Source: Lophium mytilinum (Eukaryota). Taken from it: 64,000 nucleotides of DNA. The notes under the pieces were generated by a model. It was not told where the DNA came from, did not search any database, and was given only the letters and a program-made list of their open reading frames with translations. Of the stretch, positions 5,200-64,000 are shown piece after piece. The position numbers and the translations under genes are program-made. The stretch's first letter is position 1; every line of letters starts with the position of its first letter. The stretch is from NCBI GenBank assembly GCA_010093605.1, contig MU004201.1, positions 186,001 through 250,000 on the forward strand. The letters run 5' to 3'.

Positions 5200-6207
5200 T
5201 CTAAGTGCCTACTTCTATAGTCTTAGCATAATTATAGCTAGCAGGGGTTTCTAGTGCTTAGGTTTCTTAAAAGACTTGTAAGGGCCGGCGGCGTTAGGGT
5301 ATTAATAATAGTAATCCATCACAACGTTGCGGTAATTAAACGTGCTTTTATATAATTTCTACTTGGATTTAGCGTTCCAGTTAGGGTAACCGGTGTAGCG
5401 GATTTTATACTGCAAGAGGCCTTTAGTGCCTGCGGTAGGATTAATTATTACTTTATTAATATGTACGTTAATAATGTTATCTATGTCCTATTATTTAAAA
5501 CCTTCCTAATTAACTTTAATAGGGCCGGGTTTATTATATATCTGTCCTTTAAGCGGCTTATAAGTAATCCTATAGAGTAACTATAGGTAGAAAATGTTAA
5601 ATAGTCCTTTTATAGTTTATGGCAGTGCAAGCTTATAGGCGCTATTATTGCTAACGCATATAATCTTATAAGGGCCTAGCTGCTTATAATTAATTAACTT
5701 ATTTAGGCGTTGTGTCTTAATGTTGCGAGCGTTAAGTATAACCTTATTACTAACTTTAAACTTAGGTGTGGGCTTGCGCTTAAGGTTTATATAGTAAGCT
5801 TATTATGCTTAGACCTAGGTAAGCTTATCTTATAGAAAGAGCTAGAGTTAGTTAATCCTCTTAGCTAGGGCGTTAGCTTTCTCTTAAAGTAATTTCTAGG
5901 GTCCTTTTAAGTTAATAGAGTTATCTGCTAGTTCTAGTCCTAAGCGCGGGTTGTAGCCTTTAGTGGCTACAAATAGTAACACGCCTATTACTATTTTAGC
6001 GCAGTTAGCCTTAAATTCGGCGATAGGTAGAAGATCTACCTAGTTATCTTATTTATAGTTAATATAGGCGCGTAGATATTACTTAAGTGCTATATTAGCG
6101 ATCTTAGTCTAGCTATTTATTTTAGGGTAAAATAATAAGAACAACTTAGGTAAGGTGCTAATACGGGCGTAGAGGCGTTTCTAGAAGTATAATATAAACT
6201 ACGCCCC
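5200..6207 (-). pseudogene. pol: pol of B, 3' part (integrase C-terminal half and chromodomain)
   Basis: Minus strand shows the GPY motif and chromodomain-like LLQYKIRYTGYP.WN at ~5370-5420. Integrase resumes at 14563. Confidence 0.85.
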
Positions 6208-17500: not shown

Positions 17501-17950
17501 TAAGAATAATATTATAGCCTTAAAGGTTAGTAATATAACACTATAGATATTTAATGTAAGCGCTAAGTAATAGCGTAATCTAGGCTTTATGCGTAACTAT
17601 TAGTATAGAGCGACTATTAGTAAGCTATAGAGGTATTAGTTTAGCGATTGCAATAGTTATAAGCTTCTAGGCCTTTGCAAATATCCGTAATATAAAGGCT
17701 AGGCATAAGTAACTAGTATCTATAAGATATCTGCTATTAATAGCGCCTATAGTAGTATAAATCTAGCACTTAAAGTTTAATTACTTGCCTTGCGTAACTT
17801 TCTTAGAGGAATTAATAGCGCAAGTAGAGAGCCGGAGTTTGTCTAGCTTAGGGGGTGGTTGCTCTAGCTCGCGGATGCGGGCAACTAGTGCACTTAGATA
17901 AATCTCTACTAGACTCTAACTGTAACTGTGGTTAGAGCCTAGGGAAAATC
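14563..17950 (-). pseudogene. pol: pol of B, 5' part (PR-RT-RH-IN N-terminal half)
   Basis: ORF 16518-16793 is an RT fragment (YIDYRGLN, KLDIISAFN). YIDNVLIFS at ~16380-16410, protease-like motif at ~17720. Confidence 0.9.
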
Positions 17951-20989: not shown

Positions 20990-23900
20990 TACATAGCTTC
21001 CGCAGCGTTACTTATATAGAGGTCTATAGCGGTAAGAATAGCAGCTAAAGTTAGCTCCCAGTCTAATAGTGGTTTGAATGACAAGTAAGGGCCTAGTTTC
21101 TTTGGGTATTAATGGTGGAAGTCTACTACAAGGTGTAGATAACTGTCGGCGTAATTATAGTTGTCCTATTAGGGTTTATTGTTCCACCTAATAAACTTAA
21201 TTTTATATTATAGCATGCCTCTTTTACTAGTAGTTAGATTAAGGCGTCTTCTATCCAGGCGGCAATTAATAACTTTCTTAGCGTTGCCTTCCTAGTATAT
21301 AGGCGTTGTCTAAATAGGCGGAGGCTTAGGATTGCGTTGTCCTTTTATAGGAACGGCGTTGGCTGGATAAAGAAGCTAAGGATAGAACACCAGGTGTAAA
21401 TTCTCCATGCCTTTAGGCAAATCGAGCTTATAGGCGCTGCCGTTTTTGTAGCTCTTAAGGACTCTAAAGGGGCCTAGCTTTTTAAAGTTAAGTTTCTTAT
21501 TCGGGCGGTTCGTCTTAATAAATTGTCTGTTAAGCATGACTTAATTACCTAGATAATATATGTAAGCTAGTTATTATCCTACGTTAGTATATTTCTTTTA
21601 TTTAGCCTAGGCCCATTTAATTTCTATGCGGAGGAACGCGCGCAACTTATCTATTCTAGTAACGAACTTATCCGCGAGTTTCGTGAGACGGACTATCGGT
21701 GCGTTCGCGTTCGCGTTCTTAGGCAATCGCACAGCTAGCGCGGTGCCCGCACTAGGAATATAGCCTTTGGTGGCTATAAAGGGCGCTACTCTAGTAGAGG
21801 CGTTCTTTAATAAGTTAGCCTTAAATTTAGTAATAGTAAGGAAGTTAACCTAGTTATCTTGCTAGTAGTTAATATAAGCTTAAAGGTATTACTTTAGGCC
21901 TATATTAGCGATTTCCATTTATCTGTCTATTTTAGGATAGAAAGTAGTAGAAAGCTTTAGCTTTATCCTAATACGCTTATACAGGTGGGACTAGAAAGTT
22001 AATATAAACTATAATCCGCGATTGGATATAATAGACTCTAGGTATTCTTTAGTGCGCTAGACCTACTCTAGAAAGGCTTATACTACTTCCTCTGCGTCTA
22101 TTATTACTATAGGAATAAACTTGCGCATCTTATAGAGTCTATTAATAACTACTATAATGTATTAATAGTCTCTTTTAAATCGCGTGCATCTAGGTAGTAG
22201 GCCGATAAAGTTAACCGTAAGATTAGTCCAATACCTTTCAGGAATTAGCAGTAGTTTAAGGAAACCTTACTTTGCGTCTCGTGCGTGCTTAATACAATCG
22301 CATAGTTAGCAGGCCTTAATATAACAGTCCACGTCGTTTATTATTCTTAGCTAGAAGTAGTGTGTTAAGACATAATTATATATAGAGGTGGTACTACTAT
22401 AGCTAACCGGTAGTGGCTTATAAAGGCTCTTAATAATAGCTAACTAGAGTTCCTCTTTAGTAGGAACGTATAGGCGGTCCTTTTAAATAAAGATAAGGCC
22501 GTTGTAGATTATATAATTATAGAGTTTAAGCTTAACCCCGTAGTTCTTAACAATATCTATTAGTAGGCGGCGTAGCTTGGCTCCAATGGCGTCTTTAATA
22601 GCGTTGCCGACGACGTTATTAATAAGGGTTTCTTGTATGTAATCTACAATGTCTTGGTCTACAGTATTACTAGCAGGGTTACTCTATAACTCCTCCTGCG
22701 TCAATAACTTCTATAGTTCTTATTGCATGCGATTTAGTATATCTTACTCTGCGGCACTATCGGCAGGGTTACTCTATAAATCCCCCTGCCTTAGTAGCTT
22801 CTATAGTTCTTTATTAAGGTTACTCTAAGACTTCCCCTAATTAAGTTCTACTTTGCTAAGGTTGTATAATATCGCTGCGAGGGAAACTACGTTATAAGTG
22901 ACGCCGTCGGTTATAATGTGGGCCAGTTTAATAGCGTAACGCATTCCTGGTTCTAGGTTATAGTCCTTAAGGATAGTCTATTACTAAATTTTATAGCGCT
23001 TATTGTTCTTATCTAGGACATTACCTAGGCGTCTAGTTAGCAAATTAGCCTTGCTATTATCTTTGCCTGGTCTGTAAGTAATTCGGAAGTTAAACTTAGA
23101 GAGAAATTCAGCCTATCTAGCCTATTATTAGTTAAGCTACTTAGTCTCTATAAAGTATTATAAGGTCCGGTAGTCTAAGAGGACTTTAATTAGATTACTA
23201 TGTCTATAGCCTGCAAGCTCTATGCGCTATTCCTTAAAGGCGCGTATAATTGCTAGAAGCTCTTTATTATAGATCGAGTAATTAAGTTAGGCTGCGCTTA
23301 TATAATAAGATATAAACGCAACAGGATGGAGGACCCCGTTAGCCTGCATTTAAGATAGTATAGCAGCTGTAACAGTATTAGATGCATTGTATTCTACCCA
23401 CGTCTCTAGATCTAGATTAAAGTGGGCCATCTAAGGAGCGTTAATAAATACTTATTTTATTTATTTAAAGGAGAAATCCTCTAAACTACCTTCCTACTAT
23501 AGGAAGGCGAACTACTTATAGACCTCTGCTCTAGTAAGTCTTGTAAGTAGCCCTGCAATGTCTAAGTAGGCGACAATAAATCGCCGGTAGAAGTTGTAGA
23601 AGCCCAGGAATGCTTATACATCGCGGAGGTTCCGTAGTTATAGCTAGTTAACGACTGTCTTAACTTTAGCTAGATCTATTTTGAGGCCGTTAACGCTAAT
23701 AATAACGCCTAAGTATTTAACTTCTTATTTATGGAATTCACACTTAGTAATATTAAGGAAGAGGCCAGCCTTATAAAGTTGCTAGAGAACCTTTTTAATG
23801 TGGCCTACGTGTTCCTCCAACATTTTACTAAAAATAAGAATATCGTTAAGATAGGCTGTATAGAAGTTGCTAAGGTACTCTAAGAGTATATTATTAATAA

Positions 23901-25595
23901 AGGCCTAAAAGGTTACTAGGGCGTTGCATAGGCCGAAGGGCAGGACGGTGAATTCAAATAAACCGTATCTTGTAAGAAACGCCGTGTACTTTTCATTACC
24001 CTCCCGCATTCTAATAGCGTTAAAAGCGGCAATAACGTTGAACTTTATATAGTATCGAGCGTATTTTAGGAGTGTAAGAGTATTCTTTATAGCGGGAGGT
24101 ATATTGCGGGCCTTAACAGTAACTGCATTAAGTCCGCAGTAGTCAACGCAGATACGCAAGCCTCCTCCAGGTTTGCGAATAATAATAACTGGAGCAGTAT
24201 ACTAACTGTTACTTTTACGAATATATCCTTTTCTATACATCTTGTTGATAAATGTTTTAACGACTAGTGTTTTGTCTTATGAAAGGCCGTAGACTTTGCG
24301 GGCTAGGGCCTTAGTTCCTGGTTTAATGTTAATATAGTAATTAATATCCGTGCCGTTTTTAGCCTTGCGGCGTAGTAGTAACTTATTAGCTTCTTTTAGG
24401 TCCTATATATTAAGGAAACCCTAATACTCTATAGGTACTAGTGCCTTAAGCTTATTGCAAGTTATTAGTGTGCGCTCTATTTTTTTAAAGAACTTTTGTT
24501 AATCGTCCTTAGATATTATATAGAGGCTAATAGCTGCTAAGTTATTAGTAAAGTTGGCAGGGCCTATAATAATGTTACCTGTTTTATATGCCCGTCCGTT
24601 AGCACGCACCTGGGCTTTAGCTTTCTTATCGCCGAGCGCTAACTTAAAGTATTTAGGCTAGATATAGATAGTGTCCTCTTCTAGCAACTATTATAAATTA
24701 TATAAGCACTTGTCGCCGGAGACGGCGTTAATATTAAGGGCTTTAAAGGCCGCAAGCTGGGCGTTAAGTTTCTACTAGAATAGGCGCTTACTGGTGCGGG
24801 CTATAGGGTCCTTTAACTAAACGTAGATAGGTTTATAGTTAACTAGGCATCGGGAGCAATAGTAGTTAGAATCTAGCTGCATTATACAGGTACTAAATTT
24901 TATATAGGCGTTGTGTGTTATAGCCGTAATGCAACCTCTATCGCGATACGTTCCTAACACACGTAACGGCGTTACGTGCCCTCTAGCACGTAATTACCGT
25001 CACATAACCAGGCTTGGCGCCAGCCTTGCCTACCTCTTAGCCGGCGCTCCGCGCCCTTCTCTTTTTCTTATAGCTACTTTATCTATATATACTAATATTA
25101 GGTCTTCTCTTATATTCCGCTATTGCACCGTAACATTGTGCATTACAAGCTAATCTATACCGAGAATAACATTGTAGCCCTTAAGGTTATAGATTAGGGC
25201 CTAGAATTTATTATAGTAGCCCTCGATCTGCATAGTAACTTGGGCTGCTTTATTAATAACAGAGGTGGAGCTATTTAGTAGCTTAATGTTTTATAGAGTA
25301 GCCTTATAGATGTTAAGCTTATAGTATTTAGTAAAGCTTATAGAGATAAATATAAAACCTCCGCATCTAGAATCTATAAGGACTATAGATTTAAGTATTC
25401 TAGTTAAAGTCTTAATCCTATAGTTAAAGTCTATCTATTTACTTAATAATGGGGCAAGTCCAACGGCGCAAGCTAAGAGTTCGATGTCGGGGGGCTTTAG
25501 AGGGGGTAGCTCGAGCTCTTAGATATATGCGAGAGCTTAAGCTAGCGTGTCTTCTAACTATCTCTAATAACGACTTTCGTTAGAGATTAAGCATT
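20990..25595 (-). pseudogene. pol: pol of D (interrupted by solo LTR at 24916-25135)
   Basis: ORF 23905-24159 is RT (RICVDYCGLN, LPFGLCNA). YLNDILIFS ~23830, integrase, chromodomain ~21090-21300, protease DSRCG-like ~25360. Confidence 0.9.
24916..25135 (+). mobile_element. Solo LTR of the B family (220 bp) inside D
   Basis: Reverse complement of the B LTRs, intact TGT...ACA ends, perfect TSD TTGTG (24911-24915, 25136-25140). Confidence 0.95.
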
Positions 25596-29999: not shown

Positions 30000-30219
30000 T
30001 ATTACAGTACAATAGCGGATTGTAAGAGAAGACCTAATATTAGTGTATATAGACAAAGTAGCAATAAGAAAGAAAGAAGGGCGCGGAGCGCTAGCCAAGA
30101 GGTAGGCGAGGCTAGCGCTAAGCCTGGTTATGTAATAGTAATCACGTGCTAGAGGGCACATAACGCTATTACATGTATTAGAAACGTATTACGATAGAGG
30201 GTGTGTTACAGCTATAATA
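30000..30219 (-). repeat. 5' LTR of B
   Basis: Direct repeat of 4604-4823, followed by TSD atgcc. Confidence 0.93.
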
Positions 30220-33832: not shown

Positions 33833-36800
33833 AGGTTATAGACTATAGTCGCGGTCTATAATATAATAAGAACTTAGTTATAGAGAATCTTTAATACTAA
33901 AGGCTTATTATTTTAGTAGCCTCTCTTAGTAAAGCTTGACAGAAACTAATTTAAAATAAAGATAGAGGATTTAACGTTAAGCGGGTGAATAATATAGTCC
34001 TTTTAGTAATAGTATAAACCTATAAGAAAGACTAACCTATAGGAATAATAAAAATTAATTCTTATCTTAATTATAGAGCCACTAATTTATTTACTAGTAC
34101 TAAGCTCGCGTACCTAGCAAATCTACCTTGAAAACCCCTTAAGAAAGCCCGAGTTCTTAAACTAGCCAACGGGTTAGCCGTTGCCCAAAAAGTAATATAT
34201 AAAGCCCTTCTTAGTATAGATATAAACGGCTATTAGAGCCGTTATTAGGCCTACATTACTAACCTTAGAGACTACGCTATTGTTATAGGCCTTAACTAGC
34301 TTTAAGATTATAATCCAGCTATTAACTAGAAAGCAGGCCGCCTGGACTTTATTTGCTCTTGCTATAAACTATGCTAGAACTATGTATACCGTTTTAACCG
34401 CAACTTTATTACTATCTAGGCAAACGGCATGCGTTCTTGCAATGTATCTAATTATTACTATAACCTTATAAATTAGAAACCTATTAGTGCAGAGGCCTGT
34501 ATATAAATTGCCTCTATTTCTAAGTGTAAAGAATAGAAACTTAAATAATTCCGCGCCACGTTGTGGAAACTTTAGAAAATAAGGACGAGGACTTTATTAT
34601 TGCGTGTAACGGCTTGCAGGTTATTACCTTTTAGAGGGGCGATGACATCCCTTTTAAAGCACGTAAAATATTAGCTAAGGATATTAATAAGTTTATGCAC
34701 ACTAAGAAGCACCTCTTATAAGAAGAGATAGAATAATAACTTCTAAAGCGCCTACGCTGTTACGTCCATGTATTTAATTAAGTTAAGGCGAACATACTAC
34801 CTCCGCACCGACCCGGAATTAATTACAAAATTAACCTTATTAAAGGAGCCAGTAAACTGCCTAAAGCCCGGCCATATAGTATATTAAAAGAGAAACTTAG
34901 AGTTATTAAGAAATAGATTAATAATAACCTTAATAAAGGATTTATCTATAAGTTATAATCCTCTACGTCCTCTTCTATAATTCTTATCCGCAAGCCTAGA
35001 GGGGGCGTTCGTTTCTATATTAACTATAGGGCTGTTAACGCTATAATAGTTAAAATAAGATACCCGCTGCCACTTATCTAAGAAACACTCTAAAAGCTTA
35101 GTAATGCTAAACAGTATTCTAAACTAGATATTATTTCCGCGTTTAATTGAATTTAAATGCGGGAAGAATATATAGGTCTTACGGCCTTCTCTATATAATA
35201 GGGATAGTACGAATCTATTATTATCCTTTAGCGTCACGGAAGGCCCCGGACAATTCCAATCCTTTATTAACCGGATATTACACAATTACCTAGACAATTT
35301 CTATTTAGCCTATATAGATAATGTTCTAGTCTATATAAATAGTACTAAAAAAGAATATAAAGAGCATGTTGTAAAAGTACTAGAAAGGCTTAATAAAGCT
35401 GGCCTTAATTGCAACTTTACTAAATGCGAATTTAATAAAATAGAAATTAAGTACCTAGGTCTTATTATTACAACAGGAGGCGTCTAAATAGACTCTGAAA
35501 AAGTCGCCGCAGTTATTAATTAGAAAACCCCTACCTGCCTATAGGATATATAAGCCTTCCCTAGGTTTACTAACTTCTACTAACGCTTTATACACGCGTT
35601 CTCCCGCATTATTAGCCTACTTATATTAATAATAAAAACTATAGACGGCAAGAAGACTAAGCTAAAAGCACAGTTTACCTAGAACAATAAATGCAACGCC
35701 GCTTTCTAAGCACTTAAGACGGTGTTTACTATAGTACCTATCCTTTACCACTTTTAATACAGCAAGAAGGTCTACATTAAAACTAATACTTTAAACTATG
35801 TCATCGCTAGCGTTATATATAAGAAAGCGAAGACGGCCTACTCTATTCTATCGCCTTCTTCTCCTCTAGGATAACCCCCTAGGAATGTAATTATAAAATC
35901 TATAATAAGAAGTTACTTACTATTATTAAAGCCTTTAAAGAATAGAGACCTAAATTAGCTAGCGCTAACCCGGACAATTCTACTAATATACTTATAGACT
36001 ATTATAATCTGGAATACTTTATATCTATAAAACACCTTAATTGCCGGCAAGCCTACTAGGCCGGCTTTCTCGCTAGCTTTAACTTTAAAATTATCTATCG
36101 ACTGGGCATATTAGGGGAAAAGCTAGATAGCCTTACTAGATAGTTATAAGACCTTTCTACGGATTTAAATAATCTACGCTATTAATTTTAACACTAAACA
36201 ATCCTTAAATTATATAACCTAGGCCTAGGCGTTGCACTAATATATTTACTAAATGTTAAATTAAGCTTACCTAACAACGGCCCAGGCTGCAAACTAAATC
36301 TAATTAGGCTAGTACCTTACTATAAAGAGTTAGACCCGTTAATAACTATAGAGTTGCCACCGTTAAAGATATACTCTTAATTTCTTCTTGCACCTGTAAC
36401 GCTGCGCAGTCACACGCGCAACCCTAACCCTAACCCTAACCCTAACCCTAACCCTAACCCTAACCCTACTTCTCCTCTCGCGATTAAACTAACCCCCGCA
36501 AATAACAATAATCTCTACGCAGAGCCCAACCCCGTCTGTTAGTATATACTTACTGAGCTGTTTAATAAAGGCTATTACAGCCCGCTATAGAACTTACTAG
36601 AACCGCTATTTAATTCTATACTCTATAAACTTAATACTCTTATATAAGACGGCGAGCGCGCGCTCCCTTAATCTCTACGCGATATTGTTAGTAACCTAGC
36701 CATCTTAGAATTTAAAGTCCGCCGCAATTAACTATATTACTACGGCCGGTTGTATATACCCGCGTACAACAACTTATAACTTAAGCTCCTGCAGCTTACC

Positions 36801-38350
36801 TATAATACTACTATTAGCGGACACCCGGGAAAGCACAGTACATATAAACTTATCTAACGTTACTACTTTTAGCTAGGTATACGCGACTTAGTTAAAGACT
36901 ATATAAGCGCCTACTACGGCTGCAAATAATTAAAAGCCTTCCGCGATAAGAAATAAGGACTGCTACGTTTACTTAATATACTAGAATAGTAATAGACTAA
37001 TATCGCTATAGACTTTATTATAGAGCTTCCTCCCTATAAGCGTAATAGTTAAATTTATACTAAAATTCTTATTATCATCTACTATGCTAGTAAGGAATAT
37101 TACTATATTTCTATAAGTAGTACCTTTATCTATAATATTATTAATACTTTTCTCCGCAAAATCTATTATCTCTACGGCCTCCCCCGCGTTATTATTAGCG
37201 ATCGCGATCTACGCTTTATCTTAGACGTTTAGAGACAAGTCTATAAGCATCTCGGCGTCTACTAGAATATTTCTATAGCCGCCTACCCTAAGACTAAGAG
37301 ATAGATAGAAAACGCGAACGCTATTATAAAAGCCTACTTTAGGCAGTTTATTAATTACCGCTAGAATAACTAGGTTAATTACTTGCCTATTGGCGAGTTT
37401 TTAGTAAATAACTAAGTTAACACTTTAACTATAATAACGGCTTTCTTTATTAATAAGGGCTTTTACCCGCGTTCTAGCCTTAAGCCTCTACTAGGCGCAA
37501 CAAATAACACCGCACCCGATCCTCTGCCTACGCCCGTTCTCGACCCTCTGCCTACGCCCGCTCTTAGTACTAACGCTGCCATCCGTCGTCGTTAGCTTAA
37601 AGGTAATAAGCATGTTAACTAGATAAAGGAAATTCTAAATAAATATAAGGCTATAATAATATAGGCATAAACTAAATAAGTAGACTACACGAATTAGCAC
37701 TATAATCCTCCGCTAAAGCTCTAAGTTAACGACTAGGTGTAGCTTAACGCCTATAACGTTAAGACTATCTAACTAAATAAGTTACTTAATTATAAGAACC
37801 TCGGCCCCTTCTATATTACTAAGATTATTAATAAGAGTTACGCCTTCTAGCTTAACTTTATAAATATAAGCCTTAAAGGCTCTTAAACGCACTCTATCTT
37901 CTACCTATACCTTCTCTATATAGATAGGTTCTATCTACTACTAGGCTAATGCTAGCCACTACTACCTTCTATCTAGGTAATCGACCCCGTTACCTCTAAA
38001 TCCGTCAAACAACACCTAATTACGCGCATTATCGACAGCCGCTGGCGCGGCCGCGGACTAGAAGGACGCCGCTACCTTAAATATAAAGGACTTTATAAGG
38101 GTTATACTACACTATAGAAATAGTAACCGTAGAAATACTTTATACCTAAAGCTGCGGATCTAATTAGTAAATTCTACAATCTTTACTCCGACGCCGACGG
38201 TCCTTATCTAGACTTCGAACTGAACAATAACTAGCGCGCGCGCCTTACTAATAATAATAACCTCTTTGCTAACTATCTATAATTACGATTACTCTATATA
38301 AGCTACGTCCTTATCTTATATAATTACCTCGCTATATCTTTATACCGCAA
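33823..38350 (+). pseudogene. pol: pol of E (PR-RT-RH-IN-chromodomain), RIP-degraded; related to C
   Basis: YPLPLI, KLDIISAFN, YIDNVLVY (~35311), GHPGKH, IISDRD, LGPF, chromodomain IIDSRWRG (~38028). Confidence 0.88.
36421..36468 (+). repeat. Perfect telomere-type tract (ACCCTA)8 = (TTAGGG)n complement, inside pol of E
   Basis: Eight exact units read directly. Confidence 0.95.
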
Positions 38351-41272: not shown

Positions 41273-41621
41273 ATTTTAATAAGTATCTTATTTAGTTAAT
41301 AATAAAATTAGTACTTTGTACCTAAAAACATCTAAGTTCTTTAAACCATATCATAAAAATTATCATTATAGAGAATAAAGTATGTTAGGTAGGAATAATT
41401 TATATTAAATAAGGGTATGAGGGAATTGAACCCTTAATTTCTAATTTGCAGTAAGAACGCAGAACTATCTACGCATATCTAATTAAATGTTTTATATAAA
41501 GGTGAAACTTAAAGTTTTATAACTATTTTAGTTTTTTTTAATTTATATTCTTAAAGTTTTACTATTATTTTAGTTTTTTTATTAATATTCTTTATTATTA
41601 TTAATATTCTTTTTAAGTGAA
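41273..41621. other. Mitochondrion-like AT-rich segment (probable NUMT, left part)
   Basis: Extremely AT-rich with long A/T runs, unlike the RIP'd TE sequence around it. Contains an intronless tRNA. Confidence 0.55.
41412..41480 (-). tRNA. trnC: tRNA-Cys(GCA) pseudogene, mitochondrial-type
   Basis: Minus strand AGATATG-CG-TAGATAGTTCTG-CG-TTCTTA-CTGCAAA-TTAGAA-ATT-AAGGG-TTCAATT-CCCTC-ATACCC-T folds as a cloverleaf with GCA anticodon. Acceptor- and T-stem mismatches are G>A. Confidence 0.75.
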
Positions 41622-41645
41622 TATATTAGGGGCTAGTACTAGTAC

Positions 41646-41866
41646 TATTACGGTGCAATACAGGATTATAATAGAAAACCAGATAGTATTAAGTATACAA
41701 CGAAGTAGCTATAAGAAAAGAGAGTAGGGCGCAGAGCGCCGGCCGAGAGGTAGGCGAGGCTGGCGCTAAGCGAGGTCAGGTGACGGTGGCACGTGATAGA
41801 GGCCACGTGACGCTGTTGCCTGTAACAGGAACATATCGCAATAAGGGTCGCGTTACGGCTATAACA
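41646..41866 (-). repeat. 3' LTR of G (221 bp)
   Basis: Direct repeat of 49719-49939. Confidence 0.95.
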
Positions 41867-42099
41867 CTACCCCCCTCTAAAAGAAAGCTATATACGTGCA
41901 GCCTTCCTATTCTAGTATGCATACTTGCTATTATTATAGGGCAATCCTTCTTTAATTATCTTGCAATTGTGCAGAGGGCCTATTATTCTTCCGGGTTATA
42001 GTGGGTGCTCACTAAGCCTTAGATATAAGGTTAGTAATATAGTTTAATCTTACATGCGTTACTAAGCTTTATTGCGCAGTCCACGCGGTACAGCGTTGT

Positions 42100-45000
42100 T
42101 TAACGTAGTCGATAATGGCTCAGCCAACCGGTGCTGGTTGGGTTAGCAAGGCAGGGGACGAGCGTTATCCGTAGAGCGTTATCATAATTAGGGCTAGTAG
42201 TAGCTCCTAATGTTTAGGCTTCTAGAAGGACTTATAAGGTCCTTTTACTTTTAGGTAGGCATAGTAATAGTCTATAATAATATTACGGCAGTTAGTAACA
42301 CTAGTGTAGGACTTCTATTAAGAATTAGCGTTCTATTTAGGGTAACCGGTGTAGAGAATCTTATACTAAAGGAGGCCTTTTTATTTAGTAGCTGGGTTGA
42401 GCATGGCGTTGTTAATACGTAAGTTAACGATCTTGTCGACGTCCCATTGCTTGTAGCCTTCTTTGTCGATTTTAACGGGTCCTAGTTCCTCTTAGACTTG
42501 TCCTTCCAACGGCTTGTAAGTAATACGGTGGAGTAGCTATAGGTGGAAGGCATTAAACACCCCCTTTATAGTATGTGGAAGGGCTAATTTATAAGCGGCG
42601 TTATTAATAACCCTTATAACTTTAAATGGGCTAAGCTATTTATAGTCTAGTAATTTATTTAGGCGCCTAGTTTTAATATTGCGCGCGTCTAATATAACTT
42701 GGTTACCAACTTTAAACTCTATAGCTAGTTTCCGCTTGCGGTTAGTAAACTCTTCCTATCTAGCTTGTACCCAAATTAATTTATTATAGAGGAAGAGGCG
42801 GAGGTTATTTAATCGCTCGGCGAGCGCGTTAGCCTTCTCTCTAAGGGGCTTCTGTGGTCCTTTAACTACGGAGTCGTCGGCTGGTTTAAGATCGGAGCGC
42901 GGATTGTACCCTTTTATTGCGACAAAAGGAGAGACGCCGGTAGTTATTTTGTCTAAATTTGCTTCTAATTCAGCGATAGGCAGGAGGTTGGCCTAGTTAT
43001 CTTGCTTGTAATTAATATACGCGCGTAGGTACTATTTAAGTGCCATGTTAGCGATTTCCATTTATCCGTCTATTTTAGGATGAAAAGCAGTAGAGAGCTT
43101 TGGCTTTGTTCTAACTTAAGCGCATAGCTATTTCTAGAAGTGGGAGACGAATTAAGGGCCTCGATTAGAGATAATTAAGTACGGGTATCCTTCTTCTCGC
43201 TATATCTATTTAATAAATGCTTAGGCGACGTCCTTAGCCTCCATAGAGTCCATGGCGATGAACTTCCTCTTTTTTAAGAATTAGTTAACTATAACTATAA
43301 TGTGTTGGAGCTTATAACCCTATTATTTGTAGATTAGCAGGGGAGTAATAAAGTTGACGGAAATATAGTGCTAATATCGGTCTAGAATAGGTAGAGGACG
43401 GAGGAGTTCTTATTTGCCCTTACGGGAGTGCTTTAATCTCTTGTACGCGAGACAGGCGCCAATATACTAGTCCATGGAGGACGTTATTTAGGGCTAGTAA
43501 TAGTGCTTATAGAGTCGCGCGTAGGTTAATATTATTCTAGCGTGTCTAGCGGGCTTAGGTTTATGCATAGATTAGATAATATAAGTGCGCAGTTGTTTAA
43601 TATCTGGAACGTAGAGCCGCTTACGGACGTAGAGGAGGTTATTAATAACTTTGCAGTTACTAAGTTCTATTTATAGGTGGTAATCTCGGCAGAATTAGGC
43701 AGGAAGCCGTCGCTAGTTGCGGTATTTAGCGTATTTAACAGCTTGTATAACAGGGTTGCCTTTAGAGTGCTTTTAGACCCTTTAAAGAATCTAGTCGCCC
43801 GTAAGAACTACTTTCTTAGATAAATTATTTAGCTTATTATCTATAGGCAGTTTCTTAGTAGTAGAATTATATAGCTTATCTACTAGGGTTATCTTATTCT
43901 TCTTAGGGCGTCCTCGTGGGCGAGCTGGACTAGAGTCCTTTGTCTCATCTAGCTTGGCCGTTAGTTGAGGCGTTTTTTGAGGGCGTCCTCTTGGGCGAGC
44001 CGGGATAGAGTTATTTAGCTCGTCTGGCTCAGCTATTAGTTAAGGGACTATAGTTATCTTCTTTAGGCGGCCTCTTATGCGCACGCGTGGTCTAGAATTA
44101 TTTAGCTTATCTAGAACGGTGGGCGGAGGGCGCATGCGCGTAACTACTAACTAAACGCCTTCGTTGTCTAGGTAATTAAATTCACTAAAGTTGTACATTA
44201 TCTATGCCAGTTTAACGGGAGTGCACTCGAGCGTATTGGTTAGAATGTACGCGAGCTTAACAGCGTAGTGCATTCCTAGTTTGTAGTTAGCTAGCTTTAG
44301 CATAACCTACTCTTAGCATTTATACCAATTGTCGCCTGGGGCTAGTTTATTACCTAGTTGTCGAGTTAGCAGGTTAGGCTTTTTATTCTACTTGCCTGGT
44401 TTGTAGGTAGTTTTAAAGTTAAACTCGGCTAGAAACTCTATCTAGCGAGCTTGTTAATAGTTGAGGCGTTTAGAAGTTATAAATGTTTATAGGTTCTTGT
44501 AATCTAATATAACGTTAACTGGACTATTACATTCCTATTCTTATCTAGCGAGTTCTAGCCTCTATTCTTTAAAGGCTAGGACTATAGCGAGGAGCTCCTT
44601 ATTATAGATAGCGTAATTAATCTATTATAGTATTATCCGTCGTGATATAAAGGCAACTGGGCGAAGTATTCCATTAGGCTAGACTTGTAATAGTACGGCG
44701 GCTGTAGTGTAATCTAAAGAATTGCACTTAACCTAAGTGTTATAGTTAGGGTTCTATAGTGCGAGCCATGGCGCTACGCGGAAATATTTCTTAACGTTGC
44801 GAAAAGCTTTAGCTTCGTTACTGTCGTCTGGCTATGGAAATTTAAAGCCTTTTCGTACAGCGGAGGTTAACGTCGTTAGTAGAGCTGTAAACGCGGAGTA
44901 GTCGGCTATAAAGTATTAATAGAAATTGTAGAAACTAAGAAATGCTTGTACATCCTTAAGGTTTTATAGCGTTGGCCAGTCCAGTACTATTTAGACCTTG

Positions 45001-46757
45001 GCTGGATCCATTTAAACTCCGTTAACGCTAATAAGTACACCGAGATATTTGACTTTATTAACGGCAAATTCGCATTTATGGATGTTGAGGAACAGGCCTG
45101 CGTTACGGAGTTTAGTGACAACCGTGAGGACGTGCGCTTTATGTTCTTCTAGTATATTACTGTATATTAAGACATCGTCCATATATACTATGCAGAAATT
45201 ATTAAGATATTCTTATAAGGTGTTATTAATATATGCCTGGAAGGAACTGGGTGCATTATATAAACCGAACGGGAGGACCATGAATTTAAATAGCCCCTAA
45301 CAAGTAAGAAAAGCGGTCTTATGTTTATTACCTTCTTTAATACAGAGGGCGTTAAACGCGCTAATTACGTCTAGTTTTATATAGTATTTAGCTTTAGCTA
45401 GCAGTGCAAGAGTGTCCTTTACTAGCGGTAGTACGTTGCGGCTTTTAATGCTAATCTTATTAAGGCCACGGTAATTAATATAGACACGGAGTCCTCTACC
45501 TAGTTTCTTAATAACTAGGGTTAGTGCAGCGTATAAGGAGGAACTTAGTTAGATAAAACCTTTTGCGCGCATCTTGTTAACGAAGGCTTTAATAATAGCT
45601 GCTTAATCTCTTAAGAGGCCGTATACTTTGCGGGCTAGCGGCTTAGAGTCTAGGAGGACGTTAATTACATAGTCCATTAGTTAATATGGTGGAAGCTTGT
45701 TAGCTTTACAAGGGTCCCATGCGTCTACTATATAATAAAGCTAGTTAGGGAGTAACGCTTTAATCTCTATGTTGGTGATGGGAGGCCGGTTTATTTTCTT
45801 AAAGAACTTCTAATAGTCGGAGGGGTTAATGGCGAAGATATCGGCCGTAAAAGCTGCAGTTTGCGCATTGTAAAGGACGTTATTAAGCTCTGCAAGGCCG
45901 TATAAAGCTAGGTTATTCTCCGGCATAGAGATCTGGGGGTAAGTTATAGGCTAAGGCCTTTTGCGCTTATAATCGTCTATCTACTGCAGCTTTTCCCAGT
46001 CGTTGTCTTAAAGCCGAATAATGTGGTCCTCTTTATTATCGCGCTGGAGCTTTTAGTATACTGCTATTATGTCCTTTACCTTATCTAGTTCTAGGCCGAG
46101 TTTCTAATACTTGCTAAAAATTTATTAAAGTGCGGTGTCGTATATACGCTTGCCTACCCGGGCAATATTATAGTCTTTGCCGTTACTCTATACTTGTCTG
46201 CATCCGTTGGTATAAAGGTAGTAATCGTAATAGAAGTCTTTATTAAAGTTAAGGGCGTGCTCGCCCTATATAATATTAGGCTTATGTTTCTTAAACTATA
46301 GTGTGCCTAATATAACGTTGTATTTCTTTAGATCCGTAACGTAACACTATATATTCTCCGTGTAGGCTCCTAAGGATAGCGTAAGTTAGGCCTTGTAAGT
46401 TACAAGCTTTATAGGTATGCCATTAGCTAAGCGTAAGGGAATGGGAGTAGCTAGTGGCAGTGTTATTAGCTTGTTGGCTTTAGCATACGACCGTAAGATA
46501 AAGGCGAAGCAGGAATAGCCCGTGTTAGTAAGGCAGCGACTATTAGTTGTGCCGGTAGGTGTATAAATTCTATATTTAAAATTTAACTACTTGCTATAAG
46601 TAATATTTTAGGTTAAGTTAGTAGAACAGGCTAATAGTTGGATTTCGCCGGGGTTAGAAGGCGGACGTTCTAACTCCTAGATATAAGCCGTAATAGCACT
46701 TAGAAAGAATTCTATATAGCTCTATCTATAACTATAGTTAGAGCCTATGTAAAACCC
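42100..46757 (-). pseudogene. pol: pol of G (PR-RT-RH-AT-hook linker-IN-chromodomain), RIP-degraded
   Basis: VLPFGLYNAPSSFQAY, YMDDVLIY (~45160-45185), ISNRGP, chromodomain KQWDVDKIV (~42425-42455). Confidence 0.9.
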
Positions 46758-49260
46758 TCCTAGTTGCTGTTACTATTAGTATTGCTGAGCACACTAGAAG
46801 AGGATACTTTATTAGCGTGGGTAATGATGGCGAGGTCCTCTCCATCACTGTCGACGGAAATTAAGTCGTTATTGTCTTCGTCCGCGTAATAGATTGCGGA
46901 AAGCTTAAGTTTAAGGCCGTTATCGGCTTTAGATAGACGTTTAGTTAGCTTGCGCTTTAATAGAGGGGGTTTATTAGCGCATAGGCGCTTAGGGTTATTA
47001 GCTTAATAGCCCTTCTTAATGCAGTGGAAATAATAGCCCTTAGTGCGCAGTACTGCTGTAACTGCTAGAGGAAGGTAAATAGGGCGGTTGCCTTAGTCCT
47101 TCTTGTCGTCGCGAGTAGATAACTATTGTCCGTAGCTCTGCTTAGGGCGGCGGTCTCGGTTCTAGTAGTTGTTTAGTTAGTAATTGCCCGAGCGGTTATT
47201 ACTATAGCCGTTGCAGAATCTAGATAATTAAGGGGGCTAGGTAGTTGTATTACGCTAAGCGTTGTTCTAAAGGAAAGCTTTAGCGCGGAATACTATAGCG
47301 ACGAGCGTAGGCTAATCTTGGTAGCTATTAGCGCTGCTAAATACTTAGCGGCTAAGATCTAGGCGTAGCAGACGCTTAAGCCATCCTTTCTTGGAGGCGA
47401 AAGGAATCTAGTTCTTATTATCAATGTTAGTTATTTCTTTAAAACGTAGCATATATATATTCCATAACTCGCGGCCCTTTATCTTTACCTTATTACTATA
47501 GAGGATATTATCTATATAGGTAGGCTTATTAAAGATAGTAAAATATAGGTCCATATAGGCAAACATCTTGTTAAGAGTCTTAAAGTTTTTATTTAGTAAG
47601 GGCTTCTTAAATTAGGTGTAGCTACGGATAGTAGCTTCCGCGTAATTAATACAGTATAACTTAACGTATTCCATCTTGCTCTGCTTGTCTAGGTAGGCTA
47701 GGCCCTTATATTGAAAGATAGCGTAGGCGTGGCTCTTCTAAGATGGGTATTAGTGTTTATCGCTCTTGCCAGCAAATTCCTAGAGATTATAGAATTTAGG
47801 CTTATAGTCTCTATAGAGCTGCAGGCGTGCAAGCTAAGTTATAGCGTTATTGTCTATAATAGCGAAGTTATTATAATTAGCGTTGTCGTCGTCGTCTCCT
47901 AAGTTGTAGTTAAGGTCGCCTGCGGCGGCGGCGGCAGCGCGACGTAATTGGGCGGGCGCTAAGGCTGCTATCCGGTTTACTTTTAGATTAGTGTACTGCC
48001 GCTTGTAGGTAAGGCTAAGCTCTTTAAAGTAATCGCGCTGGGTTTATAGGCGGTCTAAGTCCTATTACGCTATGGCGACGTCTTGTTGGAGGGCTTTATT
48101 TACTAAGCGTGCTTTAGTAAGAAGGAGAGTCTTAGCTTTATAAGCCTTATGTTTAGTTATAAACTATTAAGTGTGCTTAGTGTACGCTTTCTCATTTTCT
48201 AATTAAAGGCGCGTAATGTCTTTATTTAGTTAAGCAACCTTAGCTTGCAAGTGTAAGATCTTAGGGTTATAAGCGTTAGCTTGGTCCTAGAGAGCGTTTA
48301 ATTCCGCATTCTTAGCTTGCATGTCTTTTTAAAGTCCTTCTAGATTCTCTTAGAATGTAGCAACTCTATAGTATATATCCTTATAATACTTAGGAACTGC
48401 ATTATAGAAGGCTTTAGCGGAGTCGAGGTTAATATTAATAGCGTTGGCAACTCTATTGCGGTTGACGTAGAATGTAATACCTTCGGCTGTTGTAGTAAAG
48501 TATAATTTTCGGCGGTTACAGCGTCCTATATCTAGTGTAGGTAACTCTAGGTTAGCCGGTGGCATAGTTGTGGTTGGGGGGCTCTACGCGGAGGGAGGTA
48601 GATTATCGGTGCGCTTAGGGTGTTAAGGAGTAGGAGTAAATAGCAGAACTAGACTAGCAGGAATAGTCTTATTTTGCTGTGCGCTAAGGAGGTCGCCGTA
48701 ATTAAAGTGTACTGCTTTAGTACGGAGGTCCGTAGCGGATTAGAATTAAGTATTATCTTCCTTATTAAGTTCGTTGAGCTCCTAGTCTAGTTACTTGTTG
48801 TCTTCCTTATTGGAGGTGACACGGAACTCCTTATCCTCTAGGTCGAGAGAGCGCTTACTGCGCTGGAGGATGGTAGTTAGCTGGAGGCGGTTATAGGCAG
48901 CGGCTGCGCCTAGTCTAATAGTACCAGCTTTTAGTGTATAGAGTTTATTGCAAGCGGCTAGCTACTCTAGGGTGGAACTAACACTATATTAAGATAATTT
49001 ACCTGCCTTTTTACGCAAGGCTTTAGCGTGTCGGGTCTCTTGTTATACTTACTAAGAGTTAGAGGCTAGTGTTAACTGGGTGGCTTAGCTATTAAGGGTA
49101 GGGTATAGGTTAGTGTTGCCACTCTTATCGGCGTATACGCCGCTAGAGGAAGCTCCTAAGTGCGCTGCAGCGTATTTACTGTAACTTGGTGTCGCAGGCG
49201 GGTGGTTCTAAGATCTTAGATAAGAAGGTACTAGTACTAGGGGGTTGCGCTGGTTAACCA
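46745..49260 (-). pseudogene. gag: gag of G, RIP-degraded
   Basis: RIP-altered knuckle GYYFHCIKKGY at ~47005-47040. ORF 48350-48565 is a fragment. Collinear with gag of B. Confidence 0.68.
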
Positions 49261-49718
49261 TTACTGGTTTAGCGCAGGTAAGGTAATAGTAGATAGTGTC
49301 CTAGTAGTTAGACGAAGGAAAAGATTAGTATAGGAAGAAAGGTTGTAGGGCCTTTATAAAAGCTAGTAAGTAGACGTAGCTAGTGCGCTCCTTGGCGGCC
49401 GTTCTTGGCGGCTAAGTTAATTAGTAAATAATAATAACTGCGCTGGGTTTAGTTAGTTTGCGCGTGCGCGGGTAGGAGCGCAATAGCAAGCAGGTTTATA
49501 GGGCCTGCGCGTTGGTCTATATAGGTAATAGGTTGTAGCGTCCTTACTATAAGGTTGTAGGGCCTCCTTCCGTTCTAGTTCCTTATTAATAAAGGTTACG
49601 GGAATTAAATTTTAGTGGCTATAGATAGTAGATGGCGCCGGTGTATATATATATATATATAGGTAGGTAAAAAGAGTGCTTCCAATATCTTCTAGAAGCT
49701 AGAAGGGTAGCTACTTTA

Positions 49719-49939
49719 TATTACGGTGCAATATAGAATCGTAATAGAAAACTAGATAGTATTAAGTATATAATAAAGTAGCTACAAGGAGAGAGAGTAG
49801 GGCGCGGAGCGCCGGCCGAGAGGTAGGCGAGGCTGGCGCTAAGCAAGGTTAGGTAACGGTGGCACGTAATAGAGGCTACGTAACGCCGTTGCCTATAACA
49901 GGAACGTATCGCGATAAGGGTCGCGTTACGGCCATGATA
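49719..49939 (-). repeat. 5' LTR of G
   Basis: Followed by TSD agtac and the remainder of the F TIR. Confidence 0.95.
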
Positions 49940-50785
49940 AGTACCCCCCCTAATTAGTGCAAGTACACCCCCTTTTTAGCGCGCATATACCCCCCATCTT
50001 GTCCAGTCTTCTAATTGGCCCGGAGGGCTTAGAATACTACTCCGGCGCTTTATAGTAAGGCTATATAGCCTTCCCATTTTATTATGCATTCTTACTATTT
50101 CTAACAGCCTATACTTAGCTGCGCGTAAGGCTATAGATAAGGCTGTAGATAAGGCTATATATATAAGCTATATATAAGGCTATATATAAGGCTACTTATA
50201 GTAAGGCTATATAGTATACCCGTTTTACTATATATACTTCCCGTTTCCTATAGTATATATAGGCTATTATATTACTACCTATATGCCTATATATCTATAA
50301 GTATGCTAAAATAGTTAAATTCTTACCTTATTACGGCCTCTCTATATTAAACCTGGCCCCCCTATATTACGGCCGCGCCTCCCTAGCTATCCTAATCTAT
50401 TAACCTCTCTATTTAGCTGCAGTTTTATCTAGTTTACTATAGTACTTTACTAAGCCGTAGCCCTACGCAGAGGCGTGCGCTTGTATAGCAGCATGCGCTT
50501 CCTCTACTATAGCGTAGTAGCTAAGCTGTAGCGGCAGGAAAGCTATAGTAAGAGGTGGAGGGGGTGTATTATAGAGGATAAGGATTAGGATATAATAGAT
50601 TATAGGCACGCTATACTTAGCAAGAGTACTTAAAAATTGTGGGCGAGTTAAGCGAGCAAATCGGAGGCCTTAGAGGACCCCTCCGGGCCAATTAGAAGAC
50701 TAGACAAGATAGGGGGTATACACGCACTAAAAAGGGGGTGTACTTGCACTAATTAGGGGGGGTACTAGTACTAGCCCCTAATATA

Positions 50786-51170
50786 TTTCCTAAATTATAT
50801 ATAAATAATTAATGCATATAAAAAAAAGTTTCCCTTTCTAACAGTTTAAATAGATATATATCTAGACTATATTAAAGGTTCTTTTTATATATGCTCTCTA
50901 AGGTCCTAAAAATAGAGATAGGTTACTGCATATAATATTATAATAAATAACCTGCGTATAATATAGTATAACTATTATCCTCTCCCTTAAAAGAGGTGTT
51001 ATTACTCTATTATACGCATTGAAAAGTTTTCAATAAATATTATTATAAAACTTAATCTTTTTCTATATTAATTTAATAATATTAAAAATATAAGGGGTTA
51101 TTTCTCTTATTCCGTTTAAAAAATAAATATATAATTGTATAAAATAATTGATGTAGAGACATTATACAGC
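50786..51170 (-). other. Mitochondrion-like AT-rich segment with degenerate group I intron core motifs (probable NUMT, right part)
   Basis: Minus strand carries, in order, TGCAGTAACC (Q-like), CCTTAGAGAGCATAT (R-like) and AATATAGTCTAG (S-like) at ~50860-50930. Confidence 0.45.
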
Positions 51171-61343: not shown

Positions 61344-62874
61344 TAACATGCGTAACGTATCTATATAGAGGCGATATCTATATTCTAGTATGCGGGTGCT
61401 CTATATATAAGACGGCGTATCTTATATAAGGCGCTTACTATAGCGGGGCTTAGATCTATATACTTTACCTATAGATTACGGGCCTATAGATTAACCCTAA
61501 GGTAGTAGACTAGTTTTAAGTAATTATATAGTACCTAAATAGGCGTAGATAGATTAGGTTACTATTAAGTTAGTAATAGATTATTTAGGTGTAAGCGGTT
61601 AGTGCACGCTAGAAGGTCTAGGTAAAGTAGGGAATTAATTAGGAGCGGTCTAGCTCCGCTAATAAATCTAGCTAGTAAGAGAGAGTTCTTAGGCGAGTAG
61701 TGCTAGCGATGGCGTTAAACCCTAGCTATATAATAGCTAAGAATAAACTGCTATTACTATAGCTACTATAATCTTTAGATAGAATATTTTATATAAGAAC
61801 TTGTGCTAAAGCGTTAAAGTATATACGCTTAGGGATAGTTAAAGTATATAAAGTTAGAGCAGAGAGACTATATGCACACTCTAACTATTAGTTTAATAGT
61901 ATTATACTGTAAAATAATACCTTACTTTTATAAGTCTTGCTGTATTAAATTGCGCGCTACCCTGCGCTAGCCGCTTAGTCATTGCCGCATTATATAATAA
62001 CTTCTCTTAGCTAGTTAATAAGAGGTAGTTTACTAGCCTGTCTAGAAACTATAGGTAGAAGTTAGTACCTCTACTACGCCCTAGAGCATTATAATAATAA
62101 ATATTATTATTACCCGGCCTCTATATTAACGCAGTTAGGTTAGTAGGTTACTAAGAACGGTTCCTTTAGCACACCTAGTCTCTTTTAGTTAGCTACTTTT
62201 ATATAGAGAGTATGTTTAGGGTTTTAGCCTTTGCATTTATAGAATATATTAGGCTTGCCTACTAGTATTATCCGTGTTTATATCTCTATTATAACCTTAT
62301 AGATTCTTATAGATAGTTAATTTAGTTAAAGTCTTTATAGCATCTTAGGTATCTAATAGAGGGGGGGGGGGGGTGTTACGGTTCTGTGGATGACAGGCTC
62401 TAGCGTATAGCACGTAATGGACGCTCACATGCACGCCCAGCCGGACGTCGGCGTCCTATACGCCGGCGTAGCCCTTAAGGCAACGCCTGCTAGCTAGCTA
62501 ATAGGACACCTTTTACCTCTACATCTTGCTTCTCGCAATAAATGGTAGCTCAGTGCTTTTCCATTAGAATTCCTTCCTGAATTCACTAGCTTTACATATC
62601 GTAAGCACCAGATCATACGCAGGCCTCCGGAAATCATCTTAGGAGCTCTCGGTCTCGATAGGATTATCTCAACGAGTTCCTGGCGTCCGAGACTATCGCC
62701 GGCTTCATCTCTACTAGCCTACGTCGCAACAGCTTATATAAGCTAGATGTACCATTAACTAGTCCTCTATAATCCGCGTTCACGGGTACCCACGTAAGAC
62801 GTCGAGAACGTCGGCGTCCTTGAAGGCTTGAACGCTGCGAACCCGCCTTATAAGCTTTAATTAACAAACCGTTA

Positions 62875-63035
62875 ACGACTTCCCGGAAAGCGTTGTCTTC
62901 TACGACTTCCTGGAAACCGTCGTCTTCTACGACTTCCTGGAAACCGTCGTCTTCTACGACTTCCTGGAAACTGTCGTCTTCTATGACTTCCTGGAAACTG
63001 TCGTCTTTCACGACTCCTAGAAGCCGCCATCTTCG
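62875..63035. repeat. 27-bp tandem repeat (acgacttcctggaaaccgtcgtcttct) x5-6 in J
   Basis: Adjacent units with no spacers. Explains the 9-aa periodic ORFs on both strands. Confidence 0.9.
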
Positions 63036-63573
63036 ACGGCTTCCTAGAGCTTACCGCATTGAGGAAGCAGTACCGTGGTTTAGAGGAAGCCACGTCATTA
63101 ATAAACCCCATCTGCTTTCCTCTTAAGACTACTCTCTCTCCTTCATTAACATCTCCCTCATCAACGTCTCTTCTCTCTACGTCTGCCTCATCACGTACGC
63201 CGGCGACAGGCTTTTCGACGCCGCGTAAGAACAGGCTCTCGTTGGCGAGCCCCTTAAGCAAGCCGGCAGCCAGACGTCAGCGTCCTGCAGGCCGCTGTTA
63301 GTCTCTTGCGGCCGTCTTTAGCCTTTCACGGCCGTTATTAGCCTTCTACGGCCGCCATTAGTCTGACGCCCGTGTAACCTCATGTCTGGTGGTGCCCAAC
63401 GCCTAGACCTCCCGGATTATATCGTCTCGCTTGGACGACAGCTTCACGCCTTCTTAATTGCCAACCGTTGAGCTATTAAGTCGATTGAGCTAAAGGCCAT
63501 CTTACCTAGCTTCATCGCGCACTTCCTAACCTAGCCAACCGTCTCTAGTACACAAGGACGGCGATTACAGTCT

Positions 63574-64000
63574 GTGGACCCCTTACCGTTTCCACTAGAG
63601 TGGAACATTACGACAGCCCGTGCTGATTACGCCGTCGACCGCTTTCTCGCCGCCGCCCGACTCGCCTATCCCGAGGAGATTGCGAATATCGGCCTTAGCG
63701 CCGGTACCGGAGCGCACAACCGCGACACGTCGCGCTCCAACAACCTCTTCAACGACTCTGTGACGTCTGCGTCACCCAGGCTTACTCCTGACAGCCGCCG
63801 GCCATTGACAGCGTCCGCCCATTCAGGGTTCACGGAGCAGGTCACCCGCAACGAGAGCGTGAACCCGTTGCCGCTCGGCAACAATAATAACAATATGACG
63901 GCCTTCTCAGCTGAGCAGACCCAAGCCCTGCGTGACCTTATTCGCGCAGTTGTTACGGAAGTCCGTGACGAGAGAGCCCCGCCATAAGGACCACCTGGTC
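63574..64000 (+). pseudogene. Probable gag N-terminal region of J with an in-frame RIP-type stop
   Basis: 137-aa ORF ending MTAFSAEQTQALRDLIRAVV...APP*GPPG. The TAA is consistent with CAA (PPQGPPG). Confidence 0.5.

Follow-up and report, generated by a model that had tools for sequence, protein, structure and literature searches.

We analyzed a DNA window of 64,000 nucleotides from Lophium mytilinum (GenBank assembly GCA_010093605.1, contig MU004201.1, positions 186,001 to 250,000 of the forward strand; coordinates below count from the first letter of this window). It contains a retroelement, here called G, whose Pol frame carries a tandem array of AT-hook motifs between RNase H and the integrase zinc finger. 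G is a full-length Ty3/gypsy element that has been thoroughly mutated by repeat-induced point mutation (RIP). Comparison with other copies from the same organism shows that the hooks are a feature of the G family, present in frame in one to three units, a two-unit copy being probable. Judged from its sequence, G appears to be a real chromovirus variant, and what its hooks did is something that we infer only. We read G, tentatively and with somewhat less than even confidence, as a dead RIP-mutated copy of a chromovirus family whose Pol gained an AT-hook unit between RNase H and the integrase zinc finger.

G occupies 8.3 kb of the minus strand (41646..49939) and was delimited by its pair of long terminal repeats (LTRs), its single Pol frame, and its RIP indices. 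In element orientation, the 5' LTR lies at 49719..49939 (minus strand, 221 nt), as placed by alignment to 41646-41866, and the 3' LTR at 41646..41866 (minus strand, 221 nt), where it terminates in ...CA. The two LTRs are 88% identical by blastn and differ at 25 positions over 221 nt, and 25 of these 25 differences are transitions. A putative polypurine tract, so assigned from its position, adjoins the 3' LTR at 41867..41880 on the minus strand (reverse complement TTAGAGGGGGGTAG). A 5-bp target-site duplication, AGTAC, is located at 41641..41645 on the left and at 49940-49944 on the right, as determined by comparison with an uninterrupted copy of the same target, described below. The Pol frame extends from protease to chromodomain over 1433 codons (42201..46499, minus strand, by translation) and contains 77 stops, 42 of them TAG, 35 TAA, and 0 TGA, with 0 frameshifts. 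The TpA/ApT index of G is 1.86 and its (CpA+TpG)/(ApC+GpT) index is 0.59, the usual thresholds being about 0.89 and 1.03, respectively. RIP changes are C>T and G>A, and the features expected of a RIP-mutated repeat, namely, TpA excess, stops that are only TAA or TAG, and LTR differences that are all transitions, were each found in G.

Within this one frame on the minus strand, Pfam matches were obtained for reverse transcriptase (RVT_1, 45036..45512, Pol residues 330-488, E 2.5e-28), RNase H (RT_RNaseH, 44421..44750, residues 584-693, E 9.7e-15), and the integrase domain SH3_Tf2-1 (42525..42707, residues 1265-1325, E 5.3e-10). The zinc-binding domain Integrase_H2C2 (43428..43598, residues 968-1024) scored 24.7 bits for a cut-off of 25.5 and was also aligned to relatives. 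The succession of reverse transcriptase, RNase H, and integrase in one frame is the chromovirus/Ty3-gypsy order. The earlier note on this DNA had also ascribed a chromodomain to G. Pfam Chromo gave no match on G Pol in whole-Pol and shorter scans. The C-terminus, however, is homologous to that of a Chromo-bearing relative (P0002, with PF00385), with 41% identity over 149 aa (E 5e-32), and the alignment also spans the Chromo domain of a second relative (P0026, residues 352-417). The chromodomain-homologous region, damaged by RIP, lies at 42258..42443 (minus strand). Homology of this kind supports a chromodomain-like C-terminus and justifies the label of chromovirus, the missing Pfam Chromo match being a caveat.

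The array consists of three tandem in-frame units of 87, 75, and 69 nt at 43881..44111 (minus strand), as defined by codon reading, Tandem Repeats Finder (TRF), a repeat search, and unit alignment. In each unit, a head, D(K/E)LNNS or DETKDS, is followed by a hook. By codon reading on the minus strand, hook 1 (44058..44081) is the degenerate RIRGRLKK with core RGRL, hook 2 (43974..43997) is RPRGRPQK, and hook 3 (43899..43922) is RPRGRPKK. Unit alignment revealed two more repeat heads without hooks (DKLYNS... and DNKLNNLS...) at 43797..43880 (minus strand); among the five alignable heads, a hook follows the first three only. Read codon by codon, the Pol frame gives ...LVVTRMRPPPTVL and then five repeat units, namely, DKLNNSRPRVRIRGRLKKITIVP*LIAEP, DELNNSIPARPRGRPQKTPQLTAKL, DETKDSSPARPRGRPKKNKITLV, DKLYNSTTKKLPI, and DNKLNNLSKKVVLTG. 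All three hooks are in the frame that carries RVT_1, RT_RNaseH, H2C2, and SH3_Tf2-1; the array is preceded by ...LVVTR and lies upstream of the Integrase_H2C2 match at 43428-43598. This codon reading confirmed what the earlier note had described, three motifs in the Pol frame after VVTR and before the integrase zinc finger, in repeats of about 25 to 28 codons, each motif at the coordinates given there. Successive hooks are 84 and 75 nt (28 and 25 codons) apart, with the frame kept.

The unit structure also shows how many times the motif arose. TRF detected a 75-nt period with 1.9 copies and 77% matches at 43905-44045, and the repeat search gave a direct repeat with 76% identity between 43900-43970 and 43975-44045. 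Hooks 2 and 3 sit in this 75-bp in-frame tandem duplication. The two perfect hooks are one duplicated event and count as a single origin. Between them, PARPRGRP is shared at 8 of 8 residues, and the rest of the units has diverged.

Whether these motifs qualify as AT-hooks was assessed with the Pfam AT_hook profile (PF02178, gathering cut-off 17.4 bits) and by the residues of the core and its flanks. The AT-hook assignment of the earlier note stood in part. A 47-aa stretch with hooks 2 and 3 together scored 19.9 bits, above the cut-off. When single hooks were scanned as 21-aa peptides, hook 2 scored 15.3 bits and hook 3 scored 15.0 bits, both below it, and hook 1, with its RGRL core, gave no match. 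AT_hook was unreported on the 122-aa linker and on the whole Pol, and a 74-aa stretch scored 11.7 bits. Membership of the profile varies with the length of the stretch scanned. By a definition based on core and basic flanks, two hooks qualify and one is degenerate: the invariant R-G-R-P core is present in hooks 2 and 3 (RGRL in hook 1), as are the basic flanks, in ARPRGRPQK (hook 2) and ARPRGRPKK (hook 3). The RGRP core, the RP before it, and the basic residues after it make these hooks similar to those of the HMGA type, and HMGA proteins likewise carry several AT-hooks in series. The G hooks differ from that type in that they sit in a retrotransposon polyprotein and one of the three is degenerate. 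A phmmer comparison of the 47-aa two-hook stretch with PDB chains returned nothing at E<=10.

We compared the array with other copies of the G family in Logan contigs from two runs (X1 and X2) of one sample, in which 97% and 91%, respectively, of the words sampled from the Pol stretch were found. These contigs may be the window's own source and hence not independent; what they show is other copies in the same genome. At >=80% likeness on 43500-44500, X1 yielded 81 pieces and X2 yielded 71; hook letters were read for some copies, and 214 differences were listed. A three-unit copy was represented by one contig in each run (260 and 262 nt), spanning 43859-44112 or 43857-44112, with 35 differences from the window and a 6-nt in-frame insertion. 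A 4.3-kb contig is probably a two-unit copy, as it covers 43860-43998 and then continues into a loose end that by eye resembles 44085-44113. In two further contigs, the sequence passes from 43905 or 43911 to 44092 through 24 or 18 intervening letters. Compared with hook 3 of the window, 12 of the 24 letters and 8 of the 18 differ, all by transitions, with 10 and 7 of these changes in the RIP direction. Both contigs stay in frame (NNSSLACL*EYFKKN and NNSSLAYL*ERPK), and their sequences indicate one-unit copies in which RIP destroyed the hook. The length variants of 75, 84, 27, and 6 nt all keep the frame. The earlier note had named RGRP repeats missing or out of frame in other G copies as a result that would speak against it; the copies instead carried one to three units, in frame. 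Dips in contig depth over the hook region were not used as evidence, and the contig joints 43936>44085 and 43952>44083 were not interpreted.

Because G is so heavily mutated, the motifs might be artefacts of RIP or a chance reading of AT-rich junk. Indeed, RIP yields K and N from E and D, and GRPRGR can also be read on the reverse strand of the hook DNA. However, neither C>T nor G>A changes can produce the codons of the cores (cgc cca cga/aga gga cgc cct), so the cores must be older than RIP, and the motifs lie in the Pol frame with intact flanking domains. Chance was evaluated by shuffling. R.RGRP occurs twice in the window, both times in the array, against a mean of 0.06 and a maximum of 1 in 300 shuffles; RGRP[KRQ][KR] likewise occurs twice, both in the array, against a shuffle mean of 0.007. 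The shorter RGRP occurs six times in the six frames of the window against 0.875 +/- 0.94, with a maximum of 4, in 200 shuffles. The other RGRP sites of the window (15297+, 37175-, 53706+, and 57830+) were dropped as chance, being in stop-ridden frames or opposite the local Pol. In addition, heavy mutation in other copies went along with loss of the motif, not with its gain. An origin of the motifs as artefacts is hardly credible and is effectively refuted. On the strand opposite the hooks, an open 57-codon frame at 43795-43968 (+) reads ...GRPRGRAG...; it is a mirror effect of CGN, CCN, and GGN codons and no sign of a gene.

The flanks of the cores are another matter. The upstream R of the hooks (cgc) is outside the reach of RIP, and the downstream K could in part stem from it. 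In the linker of other copies, E->K and D->N changes by RIP were seen (GAG>AAG at 44021 and 44030), and a less-mutated copy has DEPNDSGPRV where the window has DKLNNSRPRV (in the contig loose end at 43998). The net charge of the G linker is +31 after RIP, compared with a median of -4.5 (range -25 to +8) in relatives. Since K was made from E and N from D by RIP, this charge is inflated and the lysines after the cores are insecure. In one or two contigs, hook 2 has cga (R) for the caa (Q) of the window (43978 T>C), giving RPRGRPR, which is not a possible RIP product. For hook 1, the earlier note had proposed that cta came from cca. The change fits RIP, and the less-mutated copy has cca for cta in the equivalent repeat head, although the exact codon (44066) was unseen in another copy.

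We next consider how far the array extends beyond the G family. A word-based search with Pol residues 690-1110 yielded 15 proteins with 26-45% identity. A HMMER search with residues 690-1250 gave 22,731 matches at E<=0.001, of which the best 150 were examined, making 165 relatives in total. RGRP was absent from the spacer between RNase H and integrase in all 15 word-search relatives, and this spacer was acidic, often with EES-type repeats. Among the 68 relatives whose spacer could be delimited by regular expression, 0 had RGRP in the linker, against 0.13 expected. Searches for homologues of the linker by itself covered 13 near-length and 465 longer candidates, none of which scored, with a query that is RIP-mutated and of low complexity. 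Relatives P0002-P0011 have an acidic spacer, often with short E-E-S-type tandem repeats, and the RNase H-integrase spacer generally seems prone to repeat expansion. In element B of the same window, the linker at 15164-15386 (minus strand) has no RGRP in its Pol frame, reading ...TRTQRIRLHLEPLEIKDSRPTSIARDKIKDSPTNNR..., in agreement with the earlier note. The DNA alignment of G and B breaks exactly at the spacer (43757-44169 in G versus 15164-15386 in B), and the G spacer is about 190 nt longer. The B segment RIRLHL, which aligns with RIRGRL of G, was rejected as a RIP-destroyed hook; its tta/ggc codon pair differs by three transversions, as judged by eye.

These comparisons bear on the possibility that the array arose by neutral expansion of a hypervariable, low-complexity spacer and was dispensable, its hooks without a role in transposition and visible as GC-rich codons that partly escaped RIP. 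Conservation within Pol is lowest in the spacer, precisely where the G-B alignment fails; relatives have unrelated acidic repeats there; copies vary from one to three units; and the linker found no homologue among the 13 and 465 candidates. Against such neutrality, every length variant seen keeps the frame, PARPRGRP is identical between units whose flanks have diverged, and RGRP is enriched in the C-terminal tails of relatives, as described next. We regard a neutral expansion as fairly unlikely.

In the integrase C-terminal tail, RGRP was present in 6 of 59 relatives, against 0.21 expected and a maximum of 3 in 2000 shuffles, an enrichment of about 30-fold. A seventh relative with such a tail (P0109) is outside this count, as it was missed by the tail pattern. 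In P0073, P0089, P0107, P0109, and P0115, RGRP begins 7-11 residues before the C-terminus, with Pfam Chromo just upstream in four of the five; in P0026 and P0080, RGRP lies within the chromodomain region. Overall, Pfam Chromo was found in five of the seven hook-bearing relatives. A FastTree tree built from the integrase core (59 rows, without the tails) needed five label changes, at least four of them forced by well-supported branches; the tree is unrooted, and gains of RGRP are indistinguishable from losses. The enrichment, together with at least four changes on the tree, suggests that such motifs are favoured in chromoviral integrases, and both observations count against a neutral expansion. 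Like G, these hook-bearing relatives have a Ty3/gypsy integrase in which an AT-hook-like RGRP accompanies a chromodomain. They differ in that only one hook is present, either 7-11 residues before the C-terminus or in a chromodomain loop, whereas G has a tandem array before the zinc finger. A broader reading, that fungal chromoviruses repeatedly place AT-hooks by the chromodomain, C-terminally in several lineages and as a pre-zinc-finger tandem array in G, as a self-encoded two-part reader homing copies into RIP-made AT-rich isochores, is rather doubtful. No description of RGRP in chromoviral integrase C-tails was found in the literature.

The basic character of these sequences raises the alternative that the hook units are mainly nuclear localisation signals for the integrase or the pre-integration complex and resemble AT-hooks only incidentally. 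Because mitosis is closed in filamentous fungi, LTR elements there depend on an import signal of their own, as known from the Ty1/Ty3 integrase and Tf1 Gag signals. RPRGRPKKNK holds a KKNK-type basic cluster, and the C-terminal RGRP of relatives lies in very basic runs, e.g., KRRGRPAKRRK. A single signal would be enough, whereas duplication of the unit went up to three; moreover, its invariant part is PARPRGRP and not the lysines, some of which may be RIP products. An import signal as the main role is unlikely; the functions of import signal and AT-hook are compatible and not mutually exclusive. Alternatively, the hooks could bind the element's own nucleic acid, either cDNA LTR ends or RNA, in the manner of a retroviral integrase N-terminal extension domain or of a chaperone. 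The hooks are directly upstream of the integrase zinc finger, and AT-hooks are able to bind RNA as well. Relatives, however, have the motif in the C-terminal region, which is ill-suited to a role as an N-terminal extension, and no observation speaks for such binding specifically; we consider it quite improbable.

The mechanism that we favour, tentatively and at a probability a little below even, is that the element encoded its own minor-groove tether, acting with the chromodomain. The Pol of the G family would have acquired a hook unit between RNase H and the zinc finger, in a spacer that evolves fast. The ancestral unit would have comprised an acidic head (DEPNDS before RIP) and (A/V)R(P/x)RGRP(R/K)K, and in-frame tandem duplication would have amplified it to one to three copies. 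In an active ancestor, the array would have been translated as part of Pol and most likely kept on the integrase as an N-terminal extension, where it would grip the AT-rich minor groove multivalently, like the three hooks of HMGA proteins. The C-terminal chromodomain, as a reader of H3K9 methylation, and the hooks would then provide two weak, additive anchors for the pre-integration complex on AT-rich heterochromatin made by RIP, and such anchoring would bias insertion into already silent repeats. Targeting of RIP-made heterochromatin by G would be plausible.

Known systems offer partial parallels to such a tether. Chromoviruses are those Ty3/gypsy LTR retrotransposons whose integrase has a C-terminal chromodomain (Gao et al. 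2008, cited in an excerpt of PMC5053271). G resembles them in its Pol order, chromodomain-homologous tail, short LTRs, and 5-bp target duplication, and departs from them in its array of one to three AT-hook units between RNase H and integrase, where the 68 delimitable linkers lacked RGRP. Fungal examples of chromoviruses include MAGGY and Tf1/Tf2. LEDGF/p75, the host tether of lentiviral integrase, combines a PWWP domain, AT-hooks, and an integrase-binding domain, and, as in the scheme proposed for G, a histone-mark reader and AT-hooks anchor an integrase to chromatin, according to the portion of PMC5053271 that deals with it. LEDGF is host-encoded and acts in trans, toward active genes, whereas the modules of G would be in its own Pol and directed toward heterochromatin; the parallel is one of analogy, not homology. 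In Neurospora, the HCHC complex is sent to heterochromatin by HP1 binding to H3K9me3 and by the AT-hooks of CHAP, so that, as in the scheme proposed for G, a chromodomain and AT-hooks direct to AT-rich, H3K9-methylated heterochromatin (excerpt of PMC7544195). HCHC is a complex that the host uses for silencing rather than a mobile element, and its sequence is unrelated to that of G. A literature search whose coverage left out most subscription journals found no account of AT-hooks in the Pol of an LTR retrotransposon.

Several points weigh against a tethering role. The copy of G in the window is dead, with 77 stops. The Pfam results are mixed, in that hook 1 gave no match and the longer stretches were unreported or below the cut-off, and some of the basic flank, like some of the +31 charge, is an artefact of mutation. 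A dispensable spacer would be expected to vary among copies as the array does, from one to three units. The hooks may instead be part of the reverse transcriptase-RNase H product, their placement on the integrase being an assumption. Hook-based recognition of RIP-mutated DNA is not firmly established; in the part of PMC11381320 that covers Neurospora disruptants of proteins with at least two AT-hooks, no dramatic loss of DNA methylation occurred in any. The 25 bp flanking the G target have 36% and 52% GC, and hook-less B and four other Ty3/gypsy remnants lie in the same AT-rich block as G. Since hook-less elements share this block, the window cannot show that G chose AT-rich DNA.

As the earlier note had stated, G lies within an element bounded by terminal inverted repeats (TIRs). 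An inverted-repeat search delimited this host element, about 953 bp long with 38% GC and TIRs of about 150 bp, at 41577-41645 and 49945..50827. G interrupts its left TIR, leaving parts at 41577-41645 and 49945-50027, and the uninterrupted right TIR, at 50679-50827, served for identifying the target-site duplication. Insertion of G into the left TIR duplicated AGTAC, the right copy being placed with a shift of one base. The GC content of the 2 kb on either side of G is 34-35%. The AT content of the flanks was rejected as evidence of targeting because it is non-discriminating, G and its flanks having been mutated together.

For the present, the finding amounts to a sequence-level curiosity in an element copy that is dead. 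Its wider interest lies in the cause of transposon pile-up in AT-rich silent fungal compartments, which could be targeted insertion or the survival of insertions landing there. An element that encodes readers of DNA shape and of histone marks alike would be a concrete targeting device, the counterpart of retroviral host tethers. If the broader reading, of chromoviruses repeatedly placing AT-hooks by the chromodomain, were true, such readers would represent an unrecognised class of targeting determinant and provide a mechanistic cause, beyond selection, for transposon nesting in the AT-rich compartments of 'two-speed' fungal genomes. The C-terminal hooks of relatives suggest that the idea may reach beyond the G family.

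RIP-mutated retroelements are nested throughout the window. Besides G, another five or six Pol remnants of the Ty3/gypsy type were observed on both strands, at 640-4027, 5254-6207, 10327-13449, 14565-17693, 21076-24528, and 34764-37838; the protein identity of such remnants to G is 28-58%. LTR-like stretches with 76-79% identity to the G LTR were detected at 4604-4821, 24917-25133, and 30000-30217, for which B and further nested elements related to it are the probable source. In addition, 29934-30218 matches the region of G adjoining the 5' LTR. Toward the end of the window, at 62001-64000, GC content climbs from about 31-34% to 44% and then to 56%, and possibly the AT-rich block ends here and gene-bearing DNA begins.

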